In this document: positions 1-36,647 of the stretch, one piece after another
How the letters are laid out: each line of letters begins with the position of its first letter
Position numbering within the stretch: the stretch's first letter is position 1
Origin: a virus
Direction: 5' to 3' (one strand)
IMG/VR virus record: IMGVR_UViG_3300034196_000067
Span: 172,796-209,442 of that record
Length of the DNA: 36,647 nt
Translations under genes and position numbers: made by a program
The notes under the pieces: generated by a model
What the model saw: the letters and a program-made list of their open reading frames with translations, nothing else
Told to the model about the DNA's origin: nothing
The model's database searches: none

Positions 1-334
1 CACCGACAAGGAAGGAGAAGATCTCTCAGTGATTCTCGCTTCCAGCAAGAAGTTCGACGGCGTGTTCGTGGCCGCCGGAGATTCTTGCGCACGAGGCATT
101 CTACGAGGGGTTCGACGCGCAGGCGTGAACGTTCCCGATCAGATGGCGCTCGTCGGGTACGACGGCATGCTGGCCGCCGAAGTCTGCGCGGTACCTCTCA
201 CCACAGTGAAGCAACCCTTGCAGCAGATGGCTGCGGCTGCGATCCGGCTGGCCATCGCCGACCGGATGGAGACGCTGACGCACCCCAAGAAGATGGTCTA
301 CAAGCCCGAACTCATCGTGAGACGGTCAGCCTAG
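1..334 (+). CDS. LacI/PurR-family transcriptional regulator, C-terminal sugar-binding domain (5' partial, starts outside window)
   Basis: Frame is open from nt 2. Translation ...ILASSKKFDGVFVAAGDSCARGILRGVRRAGVNVPDQMALVGYDGMLAAEVCAVPLTTVKQPLQQMAAAAIRLAIAD is the typical C-terminal effector-domain signature of LacI-family repressors (vPeDvslvGfDd...P.LTTv.qp). The N-terminal HTH is absent, so it is truncated by the window edge. Confidence 0.8.
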   Translation, partial: TDKEGEDLSVILASSKKFDGVFVAAGDSCARGILRGVRRAGVNVPDQMALVGYDGMLAAEVCAVPLTTVKQPLQQMAAAAIRLAIADRMETLTHPKKMVYKPELIVRRSA

Positions 335-2838: not shown

Positions 2839-2950
2839 GGCTCTCATCGAAGTCCTAGAGCTCCTGGTCCAGATCCAGGGGCAAGCGGAGGAGGGAGAGA
2901 AAGGCGCCAAGAGGCGCCATCTACGCATCATTCCGGGAGGGAAGAAGTGA
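2777..2950 (+). CDS. possible small basic protein (57 aa) not in the ORF track
   Basis: ATG 2777 with SD-like 'gagggacgg'. Translation is MRRRPRKKPRSREQEEGEYRKALIEVLELLVQIQGQAEEGEKGAKRRHLRIIPGGKK. Its TGA overlaps the GTG start of the next gene as GTGA (coupling). It overlaps the 3' end of the previous gene in another frame. Confidence 0.3.
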   Translation: MRRRPRKKPRSREQEEGEYRKALIEVLELLVQIQGQAEEGEKGAKRRHLRIIPGGKK

Positions 2951-3153
2951 ATTCCGACCAAGTCATCACACTAGGATTCGCACTCTTCTGCGTTGGGATC
3001 GCCGTCTATTTGGCGTGGGAAGAAATGAAGATCATCAAGGCTCAGAAGAGACTCAGCAAGGCACAGAAGAGATATGCGGAGATGCTACCCCGGGGTCCCA
3101 GTACCCGAACCCACAAGTCCAAGCTTCACGTCGTGCAGGGAGGAAGAGAATGA
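2947..3153 (+). CDS. small membrane protein (68 aa), GTG start
   Basis: SD 'ggagggaag' precedes the start. There is an N-terminal hydrophobic helix ITLGFALFCVGIAVYLAW. Confidence 0.55.
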   Translation: MNSDQVITLGFALFCVGIAVYLAWEEMKIIKAQKRLSKAQKRYAEMLPRGPSTRTHKSKLHVVQGGRE

Positions 3154-3326
3154 AGCCTGATGTCATCGCCTCCGTAGTAGTCGCCGTGAGCTCTTTGGGC
3201 GCCTTCTTCTTCCTGTCCAAGATGATCTCGAAGGCGTTCAAGGCAGAAAGGGAGTTCAACGAGAAACTGATCAAGAAGCTCGACGGCGCTCGGGTTCCAT
3301 CTCCCAACATCCAGGAGGAGAAGTAG
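3150..3326 (+). CDS. small membrane protein (58 aa)
   Basis: ATG 3150 with SD 'ggagga'; ATGA overlap with the upstream stop. Contains a TM helix VIASVVVAVSSLGAFFFL. Confidence 0.55.
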   Translation: MKPDVIASVVVAVSSLGAFFFLSKMISKAFKAEREFNEKLIKKLDGARVPSPNIQEEK

Positions 3327-3335
3327 CCTGCGTAG

Positions 3336-3362
3336 GAACAGGGGGCACCCCTCCTGTTCTTA
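3336..3362 (+). terminator. weak intrinsic terminator hairpin GAACAGG..CCTGTTC followed by TTAGCTCAAG
   Basis: 7-bp stem seen directly. The U-tract is short. It shares the TCTTAGCTCAAG flank with the terminator at 18958. Confidence 0.35.
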
Positions 3363-3471
3363 GCTCAAGGTCTCTCAAACCCTCGATGCTCTGGCCCACC
3401 GAAAAATTTCACTCAGGATGTAGGCATAAGGAAGAGAGGCCAATACCTGGACTCTTGGACTGGGAGGTCCT

Positions 3472-5377: not shown

Positions 5378-5410
5378 AGACGAGGGCTCTCTCCAGCCTC
5401 GTCTTTTCTT
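5378..5410 (+). terminator. intrinsic terminator GACGAGGGCT-loop-AGCCTCGTC + TTTTCTTAGC
   Basis: 9-bp GC-rich stem plus T-tract, seen directly. Confidence 0.65.
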
Positions 5411-5460
5411 AGCCCTAAAGCAGGCCGGCTCCTACGTACCCCCGAAAATTCTGGCCTGAC

Positions 5461-5570
5461 ACCCCTCCCCGGTCCCGTTCCCTGTTGCACCCCCCCACCC
5501 CCTTCTAAATCCCCCCCGAATCTATGGTACCACTGTCCCCCTCCCTACCCCCTCCCTCTCAAGTTCTACT
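5461..5570. other. ~110-bp extreme C-rich / polypyrimidine tract inside a 620-bp non-coding region (5366-5992)
   Basis: Sequence cacccctccccggtcccgttccctgttgcacccccccacccccttctaaatcccccccgaatc...ccccctccctaccccctccctctc has no ORF. Downstream are imperfect inverted and direct repeats (GCGCTGG x2 flanked by CTATGGC/GCCATAG at ~5757-5795) and a CT-rich tract at ~5800-5840. Confidence 0.4.
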
Positions 5571-5992
5571 AGCTCATCAGCCAGGCGAGGTGGCGAGGGA
5601 TGACTTCATGTCCTGTTGCTGCGCTTGCGGCCATGAGAGACGCGCGCAGGGCCAGGCAAGAAGTACCCTCGATGCTTGAGCTGCCCTCTCCCGACTAGAC
5701 GGCGGAGCTAACACAGAGGGATACCCTCCGGGCTAGTCCTACTCCTCGGCTCGTGCCTATGGCGCTGGAGCTGCTGCGCTGGCGATGCCATAGCACTTCC
5801 CCTGCTCCTTCCTCTCTCTATCTCCTGTCACATGAGTGTCTCTCGAAGGACCATCATGGCCACCTAGTCGCGCCGACATGCTAAGGAGGCAAGTCTGAAA
5901 TCGGATAACGCGCTGACGGCAGATACACAGACTCGCGTGTCATAAGAACGTGGGTTGGGAAGTACACATGCTAACGCCTAAAGGGAGAACGC

Positions 5993-6256
5993 ATGAAGAA
6001 GGCAAAGCAGCAGAGCCAAGTCGTCGCTTGGGAGTTCATGAAGTCCAAGATCGTCGCGACTCCTTCGAAGTGGATACAGATGGCTCTGTCGGCACAGAGG
6101 ATGGCCAGCAAGGCTGAGGACGAGTTCCTTCGAAGTCTGTTCGAGAAGTACGAGCTCGGAAAGAAAGTGGACATCGAAGCTGCGCTCGAAACCTTCTTGC
6201 GCGCTGGGAAGTTCTACACGGAGCTATCGAACTTGATGAGAAAGGAGATCTCATGA
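5993..6256 (+). CDS. hypothetical protein (87 aa)
   Basis: SD 'aaagggagaac'. First gene after the large non-coding region. Confidence 0.6.
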   Translation: MKKAKQQSQVVAWEFMKSKIVATPSKWIQMALSAQRMASKAEDEFLRSLFEKYELGKKVDIEAALETFLRAGKFYTELSNLMRKEIS

Positions 6257-6723
6257 CCGCGTCGAAGGGCTTGGACCGTGCATCAGTGCTCACACTCGCT
6301 GCCTTCATCCAGGATGAGGAGAGGAACGAGAAGACGCTTCGACATCTCTCTGACTGCGCTGAAGATGCAGCTAGGTCAGAAGAGCGACAGATGTTGAGGC
6401 TGCTCATCCAGAAGTTCGACGCCAAGGATGTTCCAGAGCAGGAGAGCGTCGCCAAGATGTACCGTCTGGTAAAGGAGAGAGCGATGTTCTTCCAAGCTCT
6501 CTCTGAGCTCATCGATCCGATCTACGGGGACAAGTACCTCGACTGGTGCGATGAGCATCATGACGAGCTCCTCAAGCATCCCAACTCCTTCATCGCCATC
6601 AGCATGAAGGAAAGAGTGGTGATCGCTGAATCGAACCAGGAAGTGTTCTGCAACAAGCTACGAGAGCTTCGAGAAGGCCGAGTCGATGAGCTCTTCGTCA
6701 TACACACTTCGGCAGTCGTCTAA
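6253..6723 (+). CDS. hypothetical protein (156 aa)
   Basis: ATGA overlap with the upstream gene. Confidence 0.65.
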   Translation: MTASKGLDRASVLTLAAFIQDEERNEKTLRHLSDCAEDAARSEERQMLRLLIQKFDAKDVPEQESVAKMYRLVKERAMFFQALSELIDPIYGDKYLDWCDEHHDELLKHPNSFIAISMKERVVIAESNQEVFCNKLRELREGRVDELFVIHTSAVV

Positions 6724-6733
6724 GGAGAACGTG

Positions 6734-7321
6734 ATGAGCCAGAGCTGTCACTGTGGATCACAAACTCTTCATGGCTCGAACCCGATCCCAGTAGAAGACC
6801 TCACGGGGCTCTTACACGACCGCGATCACTGCGAGACCGTGGAGGAGCTGAAGAGGGGGATCGAAGAGCATCGCGCTCAATCCCAAGCGCGTCCGAAGTT
6901 CTACATGCTGCTGAGAAGCTACGCAGAGAACAGCACTCAGCATGAAGTGAACTACGGCTACGTCTACGGCCCGTTCACCAACAACGCAGAGGTAGACGAG
7001 GATCTGGCTCGTCGCCATCCCAACAACAAGGACCTTCGAGTGTTGGTGGTCGAGGGCGATCTTCGCAGTGTCCCGCCTTCTCCTCTTGAGCGCCCAGAGA
7101 GTGAGAAGCGTGAACCTGGCAACCTCGACAACTACGAGATGAAGGACGGCAAGTTCTTCTGCAAGGTCTGCGGCTCCATCATCTACGAGCAGAGAGTCGC
7201 GCATCCCATCCACATGAAGGGAACGAACAACGGCTTCGGCGAGTGCAAGTACGACAACGTTCCCTACTGTCCCAACTGCGACAAGAAGCCGTCGTTCAGC
7301 GGAGTTCCGGTCTACGTCTGA
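6734..7321 (+). CDS. Cys-rich putative zinc-binding protein (195 aa)
   Basis: ATG 6734 with SD 'aaggag' 5 nt upstream. Contains CHCGS... and C-terminal CKVCG...CKYDNVPYCPNC zinc-ribbon-like pairs. Confidence 0.6.
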   Translation: MSQSCHCGSQTLHGSNPIPVEDLTGLLHDRDHCETVEELKRGIEEHRAQSQARPKFYMLLRSYAENSTQHEVNYGYVYGPFTNNAEVDEDLARRHPNNKDLRVLVVEGDLRSVPPSPLERPESEKREPGNLDNYEMKDGKFFCKVCGSIIYEQRVAHPIHMKGTNNGFGECKYDNVPYCPNCDKKPSFSGVPVYV

Positions 7322-16589: not shown

Positions 16590-16596
16590 TGCAGAG

Positions 16597-16628
16597 AAAG
16601 ACGAGAGACGTATCCTCTCGTCTTTCTT
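16597..16628 (+). terminator. intrinsic terminator AAAGACGAGAG-acgtatc-CTCTCGTCTTT + CTTAGCTC
   Basis: 11-bp stem seen directly. Confidence 0.6.
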
Positions 16629-16718
16629 AGCTCTCACACACTCTCACATGAAGGGGAGCCTACTACTGGCCCATCAAGACTTTGCATCTCTCAGACACCG
16701 TGTTACCGAGAAGAGGCC

Positions 16719-17603
16719 GTGGCTCTTCTCATCTCTTCTACTGAACTTCCTGAGCATTGGTACAACCGAGTCGCTACCTCGATCGAGCGCCTTCACTGGA
16801 AGGTGACATCGGTGGTGGCTGTATCTTTGGTAGTCGTCGTCGCATCTACCGACGCGGCTATCGATCGGCTTGCCGGCTCCGACATCAACCTCGTCTTGCT
16901 GTACCTCGTGCCTGTAGCCTTTGGCGCCTGGACAGGAAGAGCACGAATGGGCTGGGTCATCTCAACACTCAGCGCTCTCAGCGCCGTAGGTCCACACCTC
17001 ATATCCTCTCCAGAGCAATCTCTCGCGCTCAGCCTGAACATGGGCGTCGATATGCTCGTCTTCCTCTCCATCAGCTACGTGCTACCAGGCCTACGCAGCC
17101 TCCTAGAACACGAGAAACTGGTCTCTCGCACAGATCATCTCACAGGGGTTGCTAACTCCAGAGCGCTTCGAGAGAGGGCTTTGCGAGAGATACTGCGAGC
17201 ACGCAAGCACGGGTACGAGCTGTCGGTTGCGTATCTAGACGTAGACGATTTCAAAGCCATCAACGATAAGCACGGGCATGCAGGAGGCGATCGCATCCTC
17301 AAGCTCATCAGCTCTATCACTCGACAAGCTCTACGCTCCACAGACATGGTTGCGAGAGTAGGAGGAGATGAGTTCGCTCTACTCCTACCAAACACAGGAG
17401 CTGCGGCTGCGAAGCGCGTCGTGGAGAGAGTCCGTTCTGAGGTGTATCGAGCATCCCAGGCCGCTGGGGTAGAGGTGACGCTAAGCATCGGAGTGAAGAC
17501 CTTTGCTGATATCCCATTGAGCGTAGAAGAACTCGTCGAGTCCGTGGATCTTCTCATGTACTCCGTGAAGAGAGACCGGAAGGACGACGTCGTCTACGCC
17601 TGA
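16719..17603 (+). CDS. membrane-anchored GGDEF-domain diguanylate cyclase (294 aa), GTG start
   Basis: The N-terminal ~120 aa carries 3-4 hydrophobic helices. The C-terminal domain has the signature RTDHLTGVANSRAL...YLDVDDFKAINDKHGHAGGDRILK...RVGGDEFALLLP. The active-site motif reads GGDEF (intact). Confidence 0.85.
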   Translation: MALLISSTELPEHWYNRVATSIERLHWKVTSVVAVSLVVVVASTDAAIDRLAGSDINLVLLYLVPVAFGAWTGRARMGWVISTLSALSAVGPHLISSPEQSLALSLNMGVDMLVFLSISYVLPGLRSLLEHEKLVSRTDHLTGVANSRALRERALREILRARKHGYELSVAYLDVDDFKAINDKHGHAGGDRILKLISSITRQALRSTDMVARVGGDEFALLLPNTGAAAAKRVVERVRSEVYRASQAAGVEVTLSIGVKTFADIPLSVEELVESVDLLMYSVKRDRKDDVVYA

Positions 17604-17685
17604 AGAGCTCCTGCAAACCGACCAGTTCCTGCGGAATAAGAAACTGAAGCGACCGGTAGTATCGCTCTTCTCTCAGGAGGTCTCA

Positions 17686-17784
17686 TGCTGGGATTCGCAG
17701 GCTTCGCCGTCTTCTTCCTCGTCATCGCTGGTCTCTGTGACAAGGCACGAAAGAAGAGGATCGAGAAAGACAAGAAGAAGTGAA
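17686..17784 (+). CDS. possible 32-aa membrane peptide (not in ORF track)
   Basis: SD 'caggagg' 5 nt before the ATG. Translation is MLGFAGFAVFFLVIAGLCDKARKKRIEKDKKK, one TM helix plus a basic tail. Confidence 0.35.
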
Positions 17785-17863
17785 AGAGAGACATAAGAAC
17801 GTAGAGGAGCATTGAGCTTGGGTTCCCTTCGGACCTCCCAAACCCCAAAGCTTGCGCACTCCG

Positions 17864-17903
17864 GCGGTAGGTGTCCCTCCTGACACCTACCGCTGTTTTC
17901 TTA
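17864..17903 (+). terminator. strong intrinsic terminator GCGGTAGGTGTC-cctcct-GACACCTACCGC + TGTTTTCTTAGC
   Basis: Perfect 12-bp stem plus T-tract. Confidence 0.75.
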
Positions 17904-17907
17904 GCAC

Positions 17908-18957: not shown

Positions 18958-18984
18958 GGGCCGCCGAAAGGCGGCCCGTCTCTT
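18958..18984. terminator. GC hairpin GGGCCGCC-gaaa-GGCGGCCC + TCTTAGCTCAAG between convergent early (+) and late (-) units
   Basis: Seen directly. U-tract is weak. Confidence 0.45.
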
Positions 18985-19004
18985 AGCTCAAGCTCTTAGC
19001 CCGT

Positions 19005-19321: not shown

Positions 19322-20959
19322 TCAGCTCATAGCGATGACGAGGTCTCCGACGTTATGGACGTCAGCGTCGATCTGAGAGAGATCCTTCTGTCCTGTCCCC
19401 TTCAGGCTGTTCACGGCGTTGGTGATGGCCGTATTCGATGCCGGGTCGGGGGGCAGGTAGTCTGTCTTGGTTCGGATGGACCCCACGACGTCTCGGTCGA
19501 TTTGTTGGAAGCCTGATGAGGTAGAGGCTGGGTCGGGAGGGAGGTTGTCCGTCTTGGCTTTGATAGCGACGATGCGATCTCTGTCATCGGACGTGAAAGC
19601 GTTGGCGCCTACACCAACCACTGAATCGATATGAGAGTTCGAGGCGGGATCGGATGGCAGGTAGTCTGTCTTGGCGCGGACCGCGACGATGTCTGAACGG
19701 TTGCTGTCTTCCGTAGACTTGATCGAAGCGAGGGTAGTGCGATCGGTAGACGTGAACGAGTTGTTGGTGACTGTAGCCACTGCCACGGCAGTGGCGTGCA
19801 GAGAGTCTGTCGAGCCCGTATATCCAGTACCTGCTAGATAGTCTCGGGCTCCGTTCACACCTGTGGCAGATGCCGGATCCGAAGGAAGGTTGTCGGTCTT
19901 GAGCTTGACCCCACGAGCGTAGACGTAGGTCTCGCTGATGGTCCTCTTCACATTCGAGCCGTAAGAGTTGTCGAGCCCGAAGAGAGCATCTCTGGCAGTA
20001 GTCACATCGCCCTGAGTAGACACTACGGAAGCGGGCATGACTGCGTTGATGGCGTTCAGTGCAGCACGATCGTCTGCGGTGAAGCCTCCTGATCCGGAGA
20101 CGATGCCTGTGAGAGAGAGCTGAAGCTGGTGCAGGGAGTCTGTGGCCGCGCTGAAGCCCGTTCCTGCAAGAGCGGTGACATCACTCTGAGCCGCAGGAGT
20201 TGCTGGAAGGTTGTCGGTCTTGAGCTTGACCGCAGCGAGCTCGATCTGAATGTTGTGTAGAGAGTCTGTGCCAGAGACCCAACCCGAACCGCCTTTGAGC
20301 TCAGTGGCTCGGCTGTCTGTGTTCGAGTTGATGGACGTGACTGCACTCGTCACGTCCCCAACGGCAGCAGGAGCCGCTGGAAGGTTGTCTGTCTTCGCCT
20401 TGATGGCGTTGACGTTCGAGCGATCGGATGAGTTGAAAGAGTTCGTACCCAGCCACGTCTCGATCCCTGAAGTAGACACCGGATCGGAGGGCAAGTTGTC
20501 GGTCTTGGCCTTGACTGCCAGAAGCGTAGTGCGATCGTCTGAGCCGAAACCGCCACCAGAACTGCTTCCAGCAGATACGTTCTGAATGTCCGCGGAGATG
20601 GAGGTGCTGACTGGAGTGCCGAGACGGTTGTATACGTCGGTCGCGTCTGCAACGACGATCTTCACCACTCCAGGGTATCGAGCCGCGCCGACGCACGTGA
20701 CCATGTACTGGAACACACCAGGCTGATCTGTGTACGTCGCTGGGATGAGGATGTTGTAGTACCCAGCCTGGGAGTAAGCCCCTTGAGTCTTCTCCTCCCA
20801 CATGCTCGGTGAGACGGTCAGATTAAACATCGTCCCATCGGATTTGATGACTGTGCAGTTGATGGAGCTGTACGCGACTCCGGCCATAGGCGCGTCAGAG
20901 ACAGAGTCAACCAAGGTGACTGGCGCACGAACCACAGTGCTTTGCTTGTATTCAAGCAT
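19322..20959 (-). CDS. repeat-containing fibre protein (545 aa) with ~9 'K-x-K-TDNLP-x-x-PA' repeats
   Basis: Repeated units, for example AVKAKTDNLPSDPVS, AIKAKTDNLPAAPAA, AVKLKTDNLPATPAA, GVKLKTDNLPSDPAS, AVRAKTDYLPSDPAS, AIKAKTDNLPPDPAS, SIRTKTDYLPPDPAS. Paralogous to the 32607-33977 gene. Confidence 0.8.
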   Translation of the reverse strand: MLEYKQSTVVRAPVTLVDSVSDAPMAGVAYSSINCTVIKSDGTMFNLTVSPSMWEEKTQGAYSQAGYYNILIPATYTDQPGVFQYMVTCVGAARYPGVVKIVVADATDVYNRLGTPVSTSISADIQNVSAGSSSGGGFGSDDRTTLLAVKAKTDNLPSDPVSTSGIETWLGTNSFNSSDRSNVNAIKAKTDNLPAAPAAVGDVTSAVTSINSNTDSRATELKGGSGWVSGTDSLHNIQIELAAVKLKTDNLPATPAAQSDVTALAGTGFSAATDSLHQLQLSLTGIVSGSGGFTADDRAALNAINAVMPASVVSTQGDVTTARDALFGLDNSYGSNVKRTISETYVYARGVKLKTDNLPSDPASATGVNGARDYLAGTGYTGSTDSLHATAVAVATVTNNSFTSTDRTTLASIKSTEDSNRSDIVAVRAKTDYLPSDPASNSHIDSVVGVGANAFTSDDRDRIVAIKAKTDNLPPDPASTSSGFQQIDRDVVGSIRTKTDYLPPDPASNTAITNAVNSLKGTGQKDLSQIDADVHNVGDLVIAMS

Positions 20960-25478: not shown

Positions 25479-25507
25479 AAGGGCCCCGTTTCGGGGCCCT
25501 TTTTCTT
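25479..25507 (+). terminator. intrinsic terminator AAGGGCCCCG-ttt-CGGGGCCCTT + TTTTCTT
   Basis: Seen directly. Confidence 0.7.
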
Positions 25508-25532
25508 CCCACGAGAGGCGTCTTCCTAGAGA

Positions 25533-25556
25533 ATCCCCTTGAAACTGCAAGGGGAT
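25533..25556 (+). promoter_or_regulatory. 9-bp perfect hairpin ATCCCCTTG-aaactg-CAAGGGGAT occluding the csp Shine-Dalgarno (AAGGGG) 5 nt upstream of the ATG
   Basis: Seen directly. Candidate temperature- or structure-dependent translational control element. Confidence 0.4.
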
Positions 25557-25560
25557 CCAC

Positions 25561-25773
25561 ATGGCGCTACGAGGTACAGTGAAGTGGTTCAACGATGCAA
25601 AGGGCTACGGGTTCATCAAGCCTGACGATGGGGGGAAGGACATCTTTGTCCACCACTCCGTCATCAAGATGGATGGGTTCCGCACTCTCTCTGAAGGGGA
25701 GCGCGTCGAGTACACCATCGAGGCCGGGGCGAAGGGCCCGCAGGCCGTAAACGTCTCTCGCATCTCAGAGTAG
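25561..25773 (+). CDS. cspA: cold-shock protein, CspA family (70 aa)
   Basis: [65 protein letters not shown]. Carries the canonical RNP1 (KGYGFI) and RNP2 (VFVHH-like) cold-shock-domain motifs. Confidence 0.9.
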
Positions 25774-25790
25774 TGCTCAAGACAAGGGAA

Positions 25791-25827
25791 GGCCGCGCTC
25801 CCGGGGGGAAGAAGCGCGGCCTTCTTG
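25791..25827 (+). terminator. intrinsic terminator GGCCGCGCT-loop-AGCGCGGCC + TTCTTG
   Basis: Seen directly. Confidence 0.55.
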
Positions 25828-27282: not shown

Positions 27283-30200
27283 TCAGACCACGAGCGTGAG
27301 GCGGATGTAGTTGCAGGGGTACGGGACGTCGAGGGTCACGTCGATCATCACGGTGTCCGGGTTCTCCGGGTCCTGGATGATGTTGTTGAGCTGCGCTCCG
27401 TTGAGGATGCCATTGTCCTTCAGGAACTCCAGCATGCCGGTGATGGTCGTCCCGATGGTGTCGAGGAAGACTGAGGTGATGTTCTGCCGGCCGATGAAGC
27501 GACGGATACCTGCCCGAAGGAACTTGGCGACGAAGTCGACGTCCTTCGTGATCGAGAGCTCTCGCGTCTCGATGGTCGATGTGTCGGTGGAGAGCTGGTG
27601 CCGGCAGAATACCGGTCCGCCCTGCACCTCCTGCATGAGGATGAAGGCACCTCCACCCGCCATCTGATCGAGCTGCTTCTTGGTGAACTTCTCCGTCCCC
27701 ACCACCCCGGTGAGGCCGGTCATGGGGTAGTTGGTGAGTCCCTGCTGCGGAGGCAGGCCAGCGATCATGCCTGCCACGACCGCACAGGCGTAGTAGCCGG
27801 GGACTTCCTTCTCCAGACCCGCGACGGTGGTCTTCACCGTATCGGGGAAGAAGGAGTAGGCCCGCCGGTTCGCGATGCCAGAGTTCAGCGTCGCGACGGT
27901 AGAGGCGACGAGGGAGTAGTCCGGTTTGGCGGGGGAAGAGCCTGCGATCATCAGGCTCGCGCCGCGCACATTCATGCTCCAAGCCGCATCGAGGATGTCG
28001 GTTGGAAGGGCTACGACCTCGTAGAAGTAGTCGTCGTTCTCTCCGGCCGCGAAGGTGGTACGGAGATTCACGAGGCCGCCGGTCACCGAGGAGATTGAGT
28101 AACGGTAGAAGACGCCGTTCCAGTTGAACTCGATGTAGACGCCATTCGCCACGGTGAAGGGCAGTGACGGATTGATTCCGGCATCGACGAGACCAGCTTG
28201 AGGCGTGACGTCGACGAGGAGCTGGTCGGCAGTGGCAGTCGAGTTCGCAGAGACGCCACTCACGACCGCCCTTGGGGCGCGGGTAGTGGGCTGCGTCTTG
28301 TTGAAGAGGACGATTCGCTCGCCCATCTCCTCGGGCTGGCTCATCAGCGTGACGTGGGTGTTGAAGAGCTGATGCACCACATCATTCTGGGTGAGCAGTG
28401 CGATGGTGTAGACCTCTTCCGACTCCAAGAAGTCGGCTGCTCTGGCGTAGGCGAGCTCGGTTCCTTCCGGAGCGGAGCCAGAGATCTCGTCGACCCCGAG
28501 GGCACCGACCACGAATCCTGGGCAGTTGAGAAGAGCCAGGTAGGTACCGAAGGCGAGAGGGTTGGCGTCCGTCACCGGGTCCATCACCGAGGTGAGGGTG
28601 CTGGTGTCTTGGAGATGGACGACTCCCGCGACTGCCGCGGACGCCGAGACATCGCGACGAAGTCCCTTGAACTGGATGTAGAGAGATGCCGGGCTGGTGG
28701 CGAAGTCGAGGGGGTAGCCAGTGACTGGATCGCGGACGAGATCCGGACCGATCACCAGGTTGCTGCTCACATCGACGTAGGCGTCAGGATTCGGACGCCC
28801 TGTTCCGGCTGTCGCGGTCTGCGCTGCCGTGAAGCCGAGAGCCGTGAGAGCGGTTCCGTCGACGATGTAGACCAGAGATCCCGCGCCAGCAAGGGTGCTG
28901 GTGAGGACGAGGTTCGTCCCCGCTCCGTTCTTCGAAGCGACTGTGCCACCGACGAGCTGGTTGACGGTGTCGACGGCGATGTCGAGCGAGGTATCGGTGA
29001 AGCCCACATCGTAGACGTGAGCGCCTCGGTCTAGAGAGAATCGGAGGTTCTCTCCAGTGAGCCCAGAGAACGAAGCGTCGGTTCCGGTACCGCTGGTGTC
29101 CGCGCTGGTGGAGTAGCCGAGGACCGTGGCCGCGGAGCTCGTCGCCTTGAAGGTGATGCTCTGAAGCCTTCCCGTCTTGGCGGTGGCAAGCTTCAGCTTG
29201 CCGGAATCGACAGAGGCAACGACGCCCGTGATGCTGACGGCCGCAGCCATTCCGGCGACGGTGGTGACGGGGGTGGAGCTTGTGAAGGTGAACGTTCCGA
29301 CTGTCGCGACTCCATCCACCGTGAGGATGTAATCGATCCGGAGACCGGCGAGAGCCACGCCTCCGGACGGATCCGGGACGGCCCCGCCTTCGACCGAGGC
29401 GGCCACTGCTGCGGAAGCCGCAGCCGATCCCGTGACGGTGGACTTGGTTGCCGAAACGGTGGGCGAGAGCCCCGTTGCCTTGAACCACACGTACTGCGGC
29501 GCGAAGGGGGCAGCGTCGATGGGAAGACCGAGAAGAGCGTCGTCGTAGGTCTTCGAGAGGTAGCGGCCTTCCGTGTCAGCGGTAGAGAGGGCAGCGTCGA
29601 TGGTGCCCATCCGGAAGCGAGTCGGATCGACGCGAGAGATCTCACCGCTCTTGAGCCGCGTGCCGTCGGCCCAGATCTGATCCCCTGCCAGGATCGGGAT
29701 GCCGTTGGTGCCGAAGGTGATGGCGGCAGAGCGTGCATGCGTCAGCGCGCCTGTGGCGACGTTGATCATGCCGGCATGAGAGGCCCAGGCCGAGTCTGCC
29801 GAAGAGACCCCACCCACGCTGTAGTCGCCACGGAAGAACTCGATCCAGGCGCTCTGTGTGGTGTTGTTCTGGAGGTTGTATGCACGGTAGCCGGCGCCGC
29901 ACACCCTCTCTTCGGTTCCGACAGAGCCGACGGAGTTCCAGCCGATGCCGAGAAGAGCATTCGCCGTCCCACCCGCGCGCACCGTGATTGAGGAGAGCGC
30001 CCCGTAGCTCGGAGAGGAGAGACGGACGCCTGTGACGGAATCCCCCGACACAGTGACCGAAGCGATCGCCATCCCAAAGGCGTTGTTGATGACGGTGACG
30101 ATGTCGGCCGGCGCGTAAGGAGACGAGCCCGGAAACGGGATGGTCACGTCTTGCGTGGTGTTGGCCGTAGTCGGCTGGTCGATGGCGAGAACGAGGTTCT

Positions 30201-30600
30201 GCCCACCGATGGAGAAGCTGGTTCCGACGATGTCGAGGACCGCCTTGGACGCCACATGGCTTGCGACCAGGAAGCCTTCTCCAGGATTCATCAGGAGCTC
30301 AGCGAGCCGACCTCCTGTGTAGAGGAAGGGACGGATCGAAGCCGTCTGGATGTCGACCTCGTCGATGTTGCCTCGCGGGTTCGGGAAAGACGAATGGGTG
30401 ATCGTCTTTCCGAGCTGCGCGTAAGCACCGTACTTCGCCTTCGAGTTGATGGTTCCATCGGAGGTGAGGACGTTGATGACCTCGAAGGCCGCACCGACGA
30501 TGACCGGCGCGAGCGTCGGCGTGAGGAACGTCGGCGACGTCTTGCGCGCGGTCTGAATGACATCGACGCCTGGCCGGGCGATCTCAGCAGTGGCGGCCAT
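27283..30600 (-). CDS. contractile tail sheath protein, unusually large (1105 aa) with inserted surface domains
   Basis: N-terminus ARPGVDVIQTARKTSPTFLTPTLAPVIVGAAFEV fits the sheath N-terminal pattern (PGVyv.E.....s.t.vA.vG.a). C-terminus ...GGGAFILMQEVQGGPVFCRHQLSTD...SITKDVDFVAKFLRAGIRRFIGRQN...VMIDVTLDVPYPCNYIRLTLVV fits the sheath C-terminal domain. The central ~600 aa contain three related beta-sandwich-like segments. SD AAAGGAG precedes the ATG. Confidence 0.85.
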   Translation of the reverse strand: MAATAEIARPGVDVIQTARKTSPTFLTPTLAPVIVGAAFEVINVLTSDGTINSKAKYGAYAQLGKTITHSSFPNPRGNIDEVDIQTASIRPFLYTGGRLAELLMNPGEGFLVASHVASKAVLDIVGTSFSIGGQNLVLAIDQPTTANTTQDVTIPFPGSSPYAPADIVTVINNAFGMAIASVTVSGDSVTGVRLSSPSYGALSSITVRAGGTANALLGIGWNSVGSVGTEERVCGAGYRAYNLQNNTTQSAWIEFFRGDYSVGGVSSADSAWASHAGMINVATGALTHARSAAITFGTNGIPILAGDQIWADGTRLKSGEISRVDPTRFRMGTIDAALSTADTEGRYLSKTYDDALLGLPIDAAPFAPQYVWFKATGLSPTVSATKSTVTGSAAASAAVAASVEGGAVPDPSGGVALAGLRIDYILTVDGVATVGTFTFTSSTPVTTVAGMAAAVSITGVVASVDSGKLKLATAKTGRLQSITFKATSSAATVLGYSTSADTSGTGTDASFSGLTGENLRFSLDRGAHVYDVGFTDTSLDIAVDTVNQLVGGTVASKNGAGTNLVLTSTLAGAGSLVYIVDGTALTALGFTAAQTATAGTGRPNPDAYVDVSSNLVIGPDLVRDPVTGYPLDFATSPASLYIQFKGLRRDVSASAAVAGVVHLQDTSTLTSVMDPVTDANPLAFGTYLALLNCPGFVVGALGVDEISGSAPEGTELAYARAADFLESEEVYTIALLTQNDVVHQLFNTHVTLMSQPEEMGERIVLFNKTQPTTRAPRAVVSGVSANSTATADQLLVDVTPQAGLVDAGINPSLPFTVANGVYIEFNWNGVFYRYSISSVTGGLVNLRTTFAAGENDDYFYEVVALPTDILDAAWSMNVRGASLMIAGSSPAKPDYSLVASTVATLNSGIANRRAYSFFPDTVKTTVAGLEKEVPGYYACAVVAGMIAGLPPQQGLTNYPMTGLTGVVGTEKFTKKQLDQMAGGGAFILMQEVQGGPVFCRHQLSTDTSTIETRELSITKDVDFVAKFLRAGIRRFIGRQNITSVFLDTIGTTITGMLEFLKDNGILNGAQLNNIIQDPENPDTVMIDVTLDVPYPCNYIRLTLVV

Positions 30601-35375: not shown

Positions 35376-36647
35376 CTACTTTGCTACAGTCCCTCCGACC
35401 GTATCATTAAGAGGCGTCCCGCCATACACCGCAGCGTGGGTTGCTACGGTAGACCCGGCCTTCAGATCCCCTGCTGTCCCGGTAACGGTGTTGTTCGCTC
35501 CCTCAAGTACGTGACCCCAGTGGTTCACCAGAACGCCAGCTCCACCACTCCCCGATCCCGAAACGTTCGAGTACTTCATGAAGGCTCCGTTCTCGACCGT
35601 GACTCCGTTGGTGACACAGTTAGTGATGGAGAAGGGACCAGTGATGCCCAGGTAAGAAGCGCCAGCCACATCGATACACTCACTCCCGGAAGTGGACCCT
35701 ACGATCTGACCACCCATTCCTTTCGTGGCGATGATGGCCATGTATCCGTAGGGGCTGACGAAAAGAGTCGTTCCTTTGACGTCCGGATTCCATAGGTACG
35801 TCGTGTTTCCTAGTCCGGAGAACGTGGCCAGGTAGAATGAGCGAATGACCACGTAGGCATTCAAGATGTAGCCGGGACCTCCGATCCCAACCGAAGGAGA
35901 GCCGCTCGAAGAGGCGAACACCGCCCCGGCTCCGTTCAACGCTATGTTAGCGATGATGTCTTCTGCTGAGTTTGGGATCCACGCTGGAGCAACGCCAACA
36001 TAACCAACCTGATGGCGAGCCGCTCCTCCGAAGGAGAAGCTGACACTCCCAGTGCCATCGAAGTAGGTGACGTAGAGGAAGGTGTTGACTCCTTCCTCGG
36101 TGGTCACTGCGATCCCGGTAAACTTCAACTTATAGAGAATGAGACTTGCGAAGCCTTTCGGACGAGTCCCGCTCAGGAAGAGGTAGTTACCGTTTCCCTG
36201 TCCAGAGATGATGGAGCCCGGAGACTCGATGACGAACTTGTCCCCCACCACAGGACGGGCGGAGGCTCCGTTGTCTCCTGCATTCATGGAGAAGTTGCCG
36301 TCAACCGTGTTGCCGGTAACGATACGAACGTACCCTGCTGCTGCTCCAGTCGTGAATCGCAAGAAGTAGGTGTCGTACTGGTTCAGCGTCAAGCTCAGGG
36401 TACTGTCCTGCACCTTGATGACAGCACTGCTGGTGCCTACCGTCACTCCAGTAATGGTCCTCTGACCGAGGCCCGAGTCGATCATCGTCCCCTGGATCGC
36501 GCACGGCTCTCCTTTAGGGCCCAGAGGGGTTCCGAAACGAACCGTATACGATCCGGTGATGGAGAACGTACCTGCTGTCAGGTTGACACGACACTTCCCT
36601 GTCCAGAAGTTCGGTACAGCCTCGATCGCTGCCTGGAAGGTCCTCTT
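35376..36647 (-). CDS. beta-helix-like tail fibre/tailspike protein, 5' end outside window (>=424 aa seen)
   Basis: The frame is open to the window edge. Gly/Asn/Thr/Val-rich repetitive beta composition (…NGNYLFLSGTRPKGFASLILYKLKFTGIAVTTEEG…NCVTNGVTVENGAFMKYSNVSGSG…) is typical of right-handed beta-helix fibres. Confidence 0.65.
   Translation of the reverse strand, partial: KRTFQAAIEAVPNFWTGKCRVNLTAGTFSITGSYTVRFGTPLGPKGEPCAIQGTMIDSGLGQRTITGVTVGTSSAVIKVQDSTLSLTLNQYDTYFLRFTTGAAAGYVRIVTGNTVDGNFSMNAGDNGASARPVVGDKFVIESPGSIISGQGNGNYLFLSGTRPKGFASLILYKLKFTGIAVTTEEGVNTFLYVTYFDGTGSVSFSFGGAARHQVGYVGVAPAWIPNSAEDIIANIALNGAGAVFASSSGSPSVGIGGPGYILNAYVVIRSFYLATFSGLGNTTYLWNPDVKGTTLFVSPYGYMAIIATKGMGGQIVGSTSGSECIDVAGASYLGITGPFSITNCVTNGVTVENGAFMKYSNVSGSGSGGAGVLVNHWGHVLEGANNTVTGTAGDLKAGSTVATHAAVYGGTPLNDTVGGTVAK

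Follow-up and report, generated by a model that had tools for sequence, protein, structure and literature searches.

A predicted membrane-anchored diguanylate cyclase encoded by a large, divergent phage

Background

In most bacteria, cyclic di-GMP (c-di-GMP) governs motility, adhesion, the production of matrix and steps of the cell cycle, and several phage receptors depend on it: flagella, type IV pili and c-di-GMP-dependent glycans. The YIP peptides of lytic PB1-like Pseudomonas phages bind the transmembrane (TM) helices of the host cyclase YfiN, upon which host c-di-GMP rises, motility falls and biofilm formation increases; the benefits proposed are retention in dense populations, superinfection exclusion and cell-cycle effects (PMC8085984). 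Cyclase genes have also been reported from viromes, in Mu-like (Cariaco Basin) and other viruses (PMC7785012, PMC11295528), while no functional or experimental study of any virus-encoded cyclase was found in the searched literature. The subject of this report is a predicted diguanylate cyclase gene, located at 16719..17603 (+) in a 36,647-nucleotide stretch of viral DNA (positions 172,796 to 209,442 of IMG/VR record IMGVR_UViG_3300034196_000067), the whole of which is called here the window.

The four-helix module DUF4118, also known from KdpD, precedes the GGDEF domain in uncharacterised bacterial cyclases of about 280-310 residues. In PelD, a c-di-GMP receptor, it is followed by a GAF domain and a degenerate GGDEF domain (PMC7890745).

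Catalytic domain

The gene, present in the list of open reading frames (ORFs) and coding for 294 amino acids (P0001), starts from a GTG at 16719, which is the earliest possible start and the sole one retaining the conserved N-terminal helix. A first-pass annotation, made from the letters alone, had described at 16719-17784 a pair of ORFs, the second for a mini membrane peptide: both are present, the end given for the pair lying one base beyond the stop.

Residues 138-288 (17130..17582, +) form the GGDEF catalytic domain, matched by PF00990 in Pfam (E=3.2e-35, 121.7 bits vs a cut-off of 23.8); TIGR00254 in NCBIfam scores 133.7 bits vs 37.4. The first-pass annotation had described this domain as complete, with GGDEF, DxLT and KxxND motifs, and each of them is found: D139-H-L-T142, K179-A-I-N182-D183 and G215-G216-D217-E218-F219. 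Degeneration, which the same annotation had named as a possible objection, is not seen in an alignment of 77 homologues, where the catalytic residues are intact: D174, D176, F178, K179, N182, D183, G186, H187, G190 and K284 are invariant, as are R206, D209, R213 and G216-D217-E218-F219, while D191, G215 and K288 are nearly so (>=90% of the homologues). The inhibition site (I-site) reads R206-S-T-D209 and is followed by MVARV and then by GGDEF, placing RxxD five residues ahead of the active site (A-site); R237 is conserved at the secondary I-site position.

Residues were mapped onto PleD by a constant offset, the offsets agreeing at every residue checked. In the numbering that we take to be that of Chan et al. 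2004, D174 presumably corresponds to the metal ligand D327, K179 to the active-site residue K332, and N182 and D191 to N335 and D344, the pair specifying guanine. G215-F219 would be the GGEEF A-site, R206-x-x-D209 the I-site R359-x-x-D362, and R237 the secondary I-site residue R390; K284 and K288 would occupy the phosphate-binding positions of K442 and R446, the latter with Lys in place of Arg. A Hypr-type enzyme, forming cyclic GMP-AMP (cGAMP), was considered and rejected: it requires Ser or Thr at the position of PleD D344, where the nearly invariant D191 retains the guanine-specifying Asp, which argues against a cGAMP synthase of this type.

An AlphaFold2 model, built on the homologue alignment, reaches a pLDDT of 94.1 and a pTM of 0.84. 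Foldseek matches it, within the PDB, to diguanylate cyclases only: the best domain match is GcbC (5euh_A; TM-score 0.88, root-mean-square deviation (rmsd) 1.8 A, E=7.6e-15), with the palm-type GGDEF fold, followed by WspR, PleD and SiaD, and both c-di-GMP-bound and GTP-bound cyclases are among the matches. 5euh is also found by sequence search of the PDB (E=8.9e-28). The protein is, as judged from its sequence, a canonical GGDEF diguanylate cyclase, in which active, guanine-binding and RxxD inhibition sites are intact, and it is likely to be enzymatically active.

Membrane module

Four hydrophobic segments are seen by hydropathy in the N-terminal part of the protein, and the AlphaFold2 model places helices at residues 27-52, 59-72, 74-96 and 98-136, in agreement with the 3-4 TM helices of the first-pass annotation. 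The four-helix module so delimited, also touched by PF13493, covers residues 27-136 (16797..17126, +). Its last helix (TM4) runs straight into the GGDEF domain, extending in the model as a cytoplasmic stalk. Hydropathy and the positive-inside rule predict a cytoplasmic location for both N terminus and GGDEF domain. The loops are short, about 5-10 residues (at about 45-58, 72-76 and 94-99), which points to a membrane anchor or intramembrane module rather than to a periplasmic sensor.

The same N-terminal part had been thought to belong to no known family. The protein itself matches PF13493 (DUF4118) weakly, at 17.4 bits vs a gathering threshold of 28.4 (E=0.0037; residues 33-121, model positions 3-89), while 43 of the 77 full-length homologues match it at E<=0.01, the best at 5e-10: through them, the module is identified by sequence similarity as DUF4118-like.

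Phage context

The exact protein is found on JGI 3300034159 contig Ga0370509_0000001 (209,442 bp) and also on a Logan contig of SRR10968273 (109 kb). Wherever these contigs and the window overlap, their DNA is identical; the two contigs, since they probably derive from one sample, are counted as one observation.

About 60 of the 209 kb were inspected. They are made up of small genes in long co-directional arrays, with nearly no Pfam matches, and the cyclase stands at the end of one such array, much as the first reading had embedded it among small accessory ORFs. A virion module occupies the minus-strand half of the window. It includes a tail sheath of 1105 residues (27283-30600, -; phrog_279, E=1.6e-16), matched by known sheath profiles in its C-terminal ~200 residues only, so that the N-terminal ~900 would be lineage-specific insertions or decorations; its nearest isolates are jumbo phages, namely Salmonella phage Arash, Vibrio phages of ~187 kb (D181) and Bacillus phage G. 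A match to a virion structural protein and a Laminin_G_3 fibre-type protein belong to the same module, and a 379-residue protein just past the window end matches the major head protein family phrog_2522 (E=1e-6). IMG/VR contigs of 102, 138 and 192 kb show synteny with the structural genes, at identities of 40-90%. A megablast search of 50,697 phage records with 24 kb of the DNA gave no nucleotide match, and neither a terminase nor a portal gene was found within the inspected part.

Base composition supports no foreign origin relative to the phage: the cyclase gene has a GC content of 0.559, and of 0.607 at third codon positions, inside the range of the surrounding phage genes (0.574 +/- 0.031 and 0.696 +/- 0.069). 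The sheath, the head-protein match and the synteny with viral contigs bear out a phage region, as first annotated, and not a chromosomal one. The cyclase is almost certainly phage-borne, and its carrier is a large (at least 209 kb), highly divergent contractile-tailed phage, of a lineage that, by these comparisons, is undescribed.

Homologues

The closest non-identical homologue (P0002; 39-40% identity) is encoded on a 13.6-kb forest-soil contig, L043, which comes from another study than the window and was recovered at 100% identity in a second sample (L044). Its position is syntenic: to its right lie homologues of the window genes g17908 and g18464, and on the opposite strand the order of a 104-residue gene (57%), the fibre (46%), the Laminin_G gene and g21814 (44%) is conserved, fibre genes being shared at identities of 43-57%. 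A third copy, P0006, 54% identical to P0002, is found on a 4-kb contig with downstream gene sizes as in L043. The search for homologues in phage context, suggested at first pass, thus yielded syntenic cyclases in two more related phage contigs. In all three copies every catalytic residue is kept, and the catalytic Lys is followed by KD instead of the KN of the family consensus. Immediately upstream of the L043 cyclase, a NADAR-domain gene is present (2883-3392, +; E=6.8e-35), which fits a hot-spot of accessory or counter-defence genes.

More distant full-length TM-GGDEF homologues (~32% identity, with intact GGDEF and RxxD) are encoded at 4965-5810 of L214 and 4800-5768 of L219, IMG/VR contigs of 153 and 198 kb that are related to each other and have no genes in common with the window phage. 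Both lie well away from contig ends, among ORFans.

More than 2,345 database proteins match the cyclase at E<=0.001, typically with 33-44% identity over 80-100% of the length. The closest full-length relatives in the genome scan are from metagenome-assembled genomes (MAGs) of Thermodesulfovibrionia, Eisenbacteria and Deltaproteobacteria, unrelated phyla, so that no host is inferred from them. The architecture of ~290 residues, DUF4118 followed by GGDEF, is, from these matches, common in environmental bacteria and in MAGs of many phyla. Thirty-eight loci, found in a first IMG/VR scan with the cyclase alone, were set aside: all lie ~0.2-1.2 kb from the ends of ~38-kb predicted prophages and are probably host flank, not relatives. 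Matches obtained by tblastn against phage records were also discarded, being below 40% identity and, in many cases, in mislabelled bacterial contigs or unannotated fragments. A metagenome scan with the neighbouring fibre-associated family (A3) found no relatives; a second one, with the phage-cyclase alignment, gave 80 loci, none having neighbours homologous to the window phage or L043.

The downstream membrane peptide

At 17685..17783 (+), 81 bp past the cyclase stop, an ATG opens a mini-ORF of 32 codons, whose product comprises one TM helix and a basic tail (ARKKRIEKDKKK). A Shine-Dalgarno sequence, AGGAGG, read directly from the sequence, lies at 17675..17680 (+), 4 nt ahead of the ATG. The peptide had been described at first pass as having 32 residues, a TM segment and a perfect Shine-Dalgarno sequence, at a distance of 80 bp, and as unannotated; in this last respect the description fails, since it figures as a hypothetical protein in the gene calls of both JGI and Logan.

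Homologues of 42 residues, in L043, and 48 residues, in L211/L212, were found. The local score between the mini-ORF product and the L043 peptide, 43, is reached by none of 2000 full shuffles and by one of 2000 segment-preserving shuffles; the L043 and L211 peptides are 52% identical (E=6e-11). All three have a TM helix, followed by the motif RKK-x-(I/L)-EK. By this conservation the mini-ORF is taken as a real gene for a small membrane protein, present in at least three related, divergent phages.

Gene order differs among them. In L043 it is cyclase-212-335-195-mini-terminator-g17908 homologue, cyclase and mini sharing one terminator-delimited unit in which no internal terminator was detected. 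In L211 it is 335-195-mini, and the contig stops short of the cyclase position. The window lacks the three middle genes, and there the mini-ORF lies directly 3' of the cyclase. These three genes (~212, 335 and 195 residues; L043 4472-6658, L211 9491-11003, -) have no family assignment: none of the L043 copies has a Pfam match above threshold, and the 195-residue one is 65% identical between L043 and L211. The mini peptide is tied in position to g17908 and the terminator downstream rather than to the cyclase. The tight adjacency seen in the window is, by this comparison, a lineage-specific feature and, since relatives place three other genes in between, does not in itself argue for a functional pair.

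Hairpins and transcription units

Terminators had been proposed on both sides of the cyclase, and strong hairpins are indeed found to bracket the gene pair. The upstream one (16594..16631, +), resembling an intrinsic terminator, has a 14-bp stem, at ~16594-16628, and the tail TTTCTTAGC; it folds at -24.9 kcal/mol (z=-5.1; none of 200 shuffles folds as well) and sets the cyclase unit apart from the genes before it, an array that ends at ~16589. The downstream terminator hairpin (17862..17905, +) has a 14-bp stem with the tail TTTTCTTAGC: the hairpin at 17862-17895, followed by TTTTCTT, reaches -27.7 kcal/mol (z=-5.6; 0 of 200 shuffles as stable). Its position is conserved in L043, the counterpart lying at 6945-6975, just upstream of the g17908 homologue. 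The spacer between cyclase and mini-ORF has no significant structure (z=-0.05). The cyclase ORF, its domain, the membrane module and the hairpins are all far beyond chance.

Both hairpins end in the identical 9-mer TTTCTTAGC, found exactly three times in the window, each time after an intergenic hairpin; one-mismatch copies follow the hairpins at 3356 and 18979. Tails of the form T(T/C)TCTTAGC are thus present (+) at 3356-3364, 5405-5413, 16623-16631, 17897-17905 and 18979-18987, and at 6967-6975 in L043, whose terminator carries the exact 9-mer once, against a chance expectation of 0.01. A recurrent tail is shared, accordingly, by GC-rich hairpins of the plus-strand intergenic gaps, and the combination has the look of a terminator or processing signal specific to the lineage. 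The coding region of g17908 starts ~17-26 nt past the downstream element, and likewise in L043: this leaves no room for a promoter, and read-through or RNA processing or cleavage must occur. The bracketing hairpins are probably the phage's own punctuation, as leaky terminators or as 3'-end stabilisers or processing sites; as they punctuate the whole rightward array, with the next gene 17-26 nt on, they are not proof of an autonomous cassette.

In the 90-nt leader of the cyclase, no match beyond chance to a riboswitch or other Rfam element was found. An 8-bp hairpin at 16708-16730 (+), around the ribosome-binding site and the GTG (-12.8 kcal/mol), was dropped, having z=-1.2 and no conservation in L043, and is probably due to chance. 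PADLOC profiles of anti-phage defence and counter-defence components match neither the cyclase nor five neighbour genes, and the window contains no transfer RNA (tRNA) gene.

Other features of the phage

Some further observations concern the rest of the phage. The Rfam cspA thermoregulator RF01766 matches the window at 25490-25827 (+), with 84.1 bits vs a gathering threshold of 78. The match covers a gene for a 70-residue cold-shock-domain protein (~25561-25773), inserted on the opposite strand inside the virion module; a gene of the same kind is at the matching place in L211. A fibre-like protein of 545 residues (19322-20959, -) contains seven [KR]xKTD[NY]LPxxP motifs, ~30-110 residues apart; every related phage contig encodes a homologue of it, 45-48% identical. 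Positions 1-334 (+) of the window are the C-terminal part of a 285-residue Peripla_BP_4/1/3 gene of the early gene array (complete at 9040-9897 of L041), the second host-like sensory or binding gene of this phage. A tubulin/TubZ-like protein is encoded among baseplate genes (Phage_base_V, GPW_gp25) at 5509-6726 (+) of L213, a 115-kb Logan contig from a more distant relative. For the 369-residue ORF at 35376..36485, the exact protein is not on record, the public gene call using a different start.

Proposed role and alternative explanations

The preferred reading, which we hold to be fairly probable on sequence evidence, is that of an accessory gene of a large phage, coding for a small inner-membrane diguanylate cyclase that acts on host c-di-GMP. 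The DUF4118-like module would anchor the enzyme in the membrane and presumably dimerise it, the stalk helix of TM4 bringing two cytoplasmic GGDEF domains together. Each domain would bind one GTP-Mg2+, the pair condensing them to c-di-GMP, and feedback by the product at the intact RxxD I-site would cap its level. Expression in the infected cell or, should the phage be temperate, in the lysogen would enlarge the c-di-GMP pool of the host and push it to a high-c-di-GMP state, with motility organelles off, adhesion and matrix up and surface organelles altered. The phage might benefit in two ways: the infected cell would be held in a dense host patch, and flagella or pili serving as phage receptors would be down-regulated, resulting in superinfection exclusion. 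Shut-down of motility and receptors as the actual benefit is a tentative suggestion, to which we give less than an even chance; enzymatic activity, dimerisation via TM helices and stalk, expression timing and physiological benefit are, likewise, what we infer. A phage with its own product-limited cyclase could set the c-di-GMP switch directly, without manipulating host enzymes.

Several points weigh against this reading. That the host uses c-di-GMP signalling is an assumption, and biofilm effects are perhaps too slow for a fast lytic cycle, as argued also for YIP (PMC8085984). The ribosome-binding site of the cyclase is weak, with AAGAGG just 2 nt from the GTG start, and a scan of the 90-nt leader for sigma-70-like promoters found no site. 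The C-terminal motif is VKRDRKD, vs a family consensus VKxxGKN, and Lys stands at the position of PleD Arg446, though this Lys is nearly invariant in the homologues. A neighbour-joining tree of the cyclases is star-like, and its bootstrap values do not support a monophyletic group of phage copies, so that their common descent rests on synteny, and cyclases may have been captured repeatedly at an accessory hot-spot. In L045/L046 and L211 presence of the cyclase is unscored, the region lying beyond the fetched DNA or the contig end.

Among the alternatives, the gene may be a lysogenic-conversion 'moron', which we consider unlikely: the phage would be temperate and the cyclase, expressed from the prophage, would make the lysogen more sessile or biofilm-prone, with no role in lytic takeover. 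A discrete unit between two strong hairpin terminators recalls moron architecture, an XRE-type helix-turn-helix gene lies ~9 kb upstream of the window, and reported viral cyclases are mostly in temperate or Mu-like elements or in prophage regions (PMC7785012, PMC11295528). Yet neither integrase, nor attachment (att) site, nor tRNA was seen in the ~60 kb, the sole integrase match having E=0.065, and no promoter was detected by the sigma-70 scan of the leader, although the host promoter type may differ; the hairpin with its TTTCTTAGC tail, recurring throughout the rightward array, looks more like general phage punctuation than like part of an autonomous cassette. Jumbo myoviruses, furthermore, are usually virulent.

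An improbable explanation, built on analogy with YIP, makes cyclase and mini peptide a phage-internal signalling pair. The peptide would dock on the DUF4118 bundle and switch the cyclase through its TM helices, gating synthesis by the state of the envelope; the c-di-GMP pulse, read by a phage or host receptor, would be the phage's own timer or exclusion signal, governing lysis timing, superinfection exclusion or the choice between lysis and lysogeny, instead of driving the host to biofilm in a general way. Consistent with this, both genes lie in one terminator-delimited unit in the window, and in L043 they are the first and the last of one such unit; at least three divergent phages have kept the peptide, and YIP-YfiN provides the precedent of phage peptides activating a membrane cyclase via TM helices (PMC8085984). 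On the other hand, three genes separate the two in relatives, where the mini position tracks the downstream terminator and g17908, and no PilZ, EAL, HD-GYP or related c-di-GMP domain is found among the precomputed Pfam calls over the ~60 kb. If the pair were real, a strategy general to jumbo phages would be indicated by the unrelated jumbo viral contigs in which this cyclase architecture is found again.

It is very unlikely that the protein is not a synthase, its I-site instead making it a c-di-GMP receptor or scaffold, like PelD, or its activity having been lost despite the intact motif. PelD shows the arrangement DUF4118, GAF, then GGDEF (PMC7890745), the PelD_GGDEF family weakly matches 2 of the 77 homologues, and the RDRKD after K284 is atypical. 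PelD, however, has a GAF domain and a degenerate A-site, while no GAF match is found in the phage cyclase, its catalytic residues are all intact and invariant in the family, and its best structural matches are active cyclases; a PelD-type degenerate receptor was rejected on these grounds.

Finally, that the cyclase is chromosomal, and appears phage-borne through chimeric assembly or a mis-set prophage boundary, is highly improbable: the 38 GGDEF loci of the first IMG/VR scan do lie near the ends of predicted prophages, many 'phage' database matches are mislabelled bacterial contigs, and the two identical assemblies may stem from one sample, but the gene lies internally, between stretches of >=24 kb and >=27 kb of phage-like genes, matches its neighbours in composition, is flanked on both sides by the phage's own type of terminator, and has a syntenic homologue in the independent contig L043, seen in two samples.

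Comparison with known systems

The cyclase of the window phage resembles most the uncharacterised bacterial DUF4118-GGDEF proteins of ~280-310 residues, found in MAGs of Acidobacteriota, Gemmatimonadota, Armatimonadota, Thermodesulfovibrionia and others. Length and organisation (four TM helices, stalk and GGDEF) are alike, and D45, Y62, P65, G78 and the catalytic and I-site residues are shared. The bacterial copies inspected (P0095, P0010) lie in ordinary chromosomal neighbourhoods, unlike the phage one, and have KN after the catalytic Lys, vs KD in the phage copies.

The fold is that of the solved cyclases GcbC (5euh), SadC (4wxo), WspR (3i5b), PleD (1w25/2v0n), SiaD (7e6g) and YfiN/TpbB (4iob), with TM-scores of 0.8-0.88 and rmsd of 1.6-2.3 A over ~160 residues, at 28-38% identity; all have the GG(D/E)EF A-site and the RxxD I-site. 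In contrast, their input is through REC, CHASE8-HAMP, PAS or coiled-coil modules, while the phage protein has a bare bundle of four TM helices. PelD shares with it a four-helix module of DUF4118 type, N-terminal to a GGDEF-type domain with an I-site, and differs by its GAF domain and inactive A-site.

Among viral proteins, eight PHROG families match the GGDEF domain, and matches of GGDEF fold in BFVD (E=1e-13 to 1e-6) include gp350 of Bacillus phage G, a 'diguanylate cyclase' of Bacillus phage SP-15, and proteins of Bordetella phage CN1 and of an uncultured Caudovirales ('AdrA'). These annotated phage GGDEF proteins, several from jumbo phages, are 20-27% identical to the cyclase and have other N-terminal modules. 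PB1-like phages hijack the host YfiN and have no cyclase of their own, whereas the window phage brings the enzyme. A regulatory role of the mini peptide on the YIP model is speculative, though it offers a testable idea: small phage membrane peptides as regulators of cyclases. DgcK and DgcL, reportedly described by Bordeleau and colleagues in 2010 as active cyclases carried by SXT/R391 integrating conjugative elements, are said to be a further case of a mobile element feeding the host c-di-GMP network; their carriers are conjugative, not viral, and the architectures differ.

Since both GGDEF genes in phages and interference of phages with c-di-GMP had been reported before, the value of this locus is incremental rather than conceptual. 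The cyclase is a clean candidate for study, being short, modelled with high confidence, intact in its key residues and retained in relatives, and the recurrence of its architecture in unrelated large viral contigs adds to this. Compared with the phage GGDEF genes known beforehand, it is distinguished by the DUF4118-type anchor, by conservation in an undescribed jumbo-phage lineage and by the association with a conserved mini peptide.

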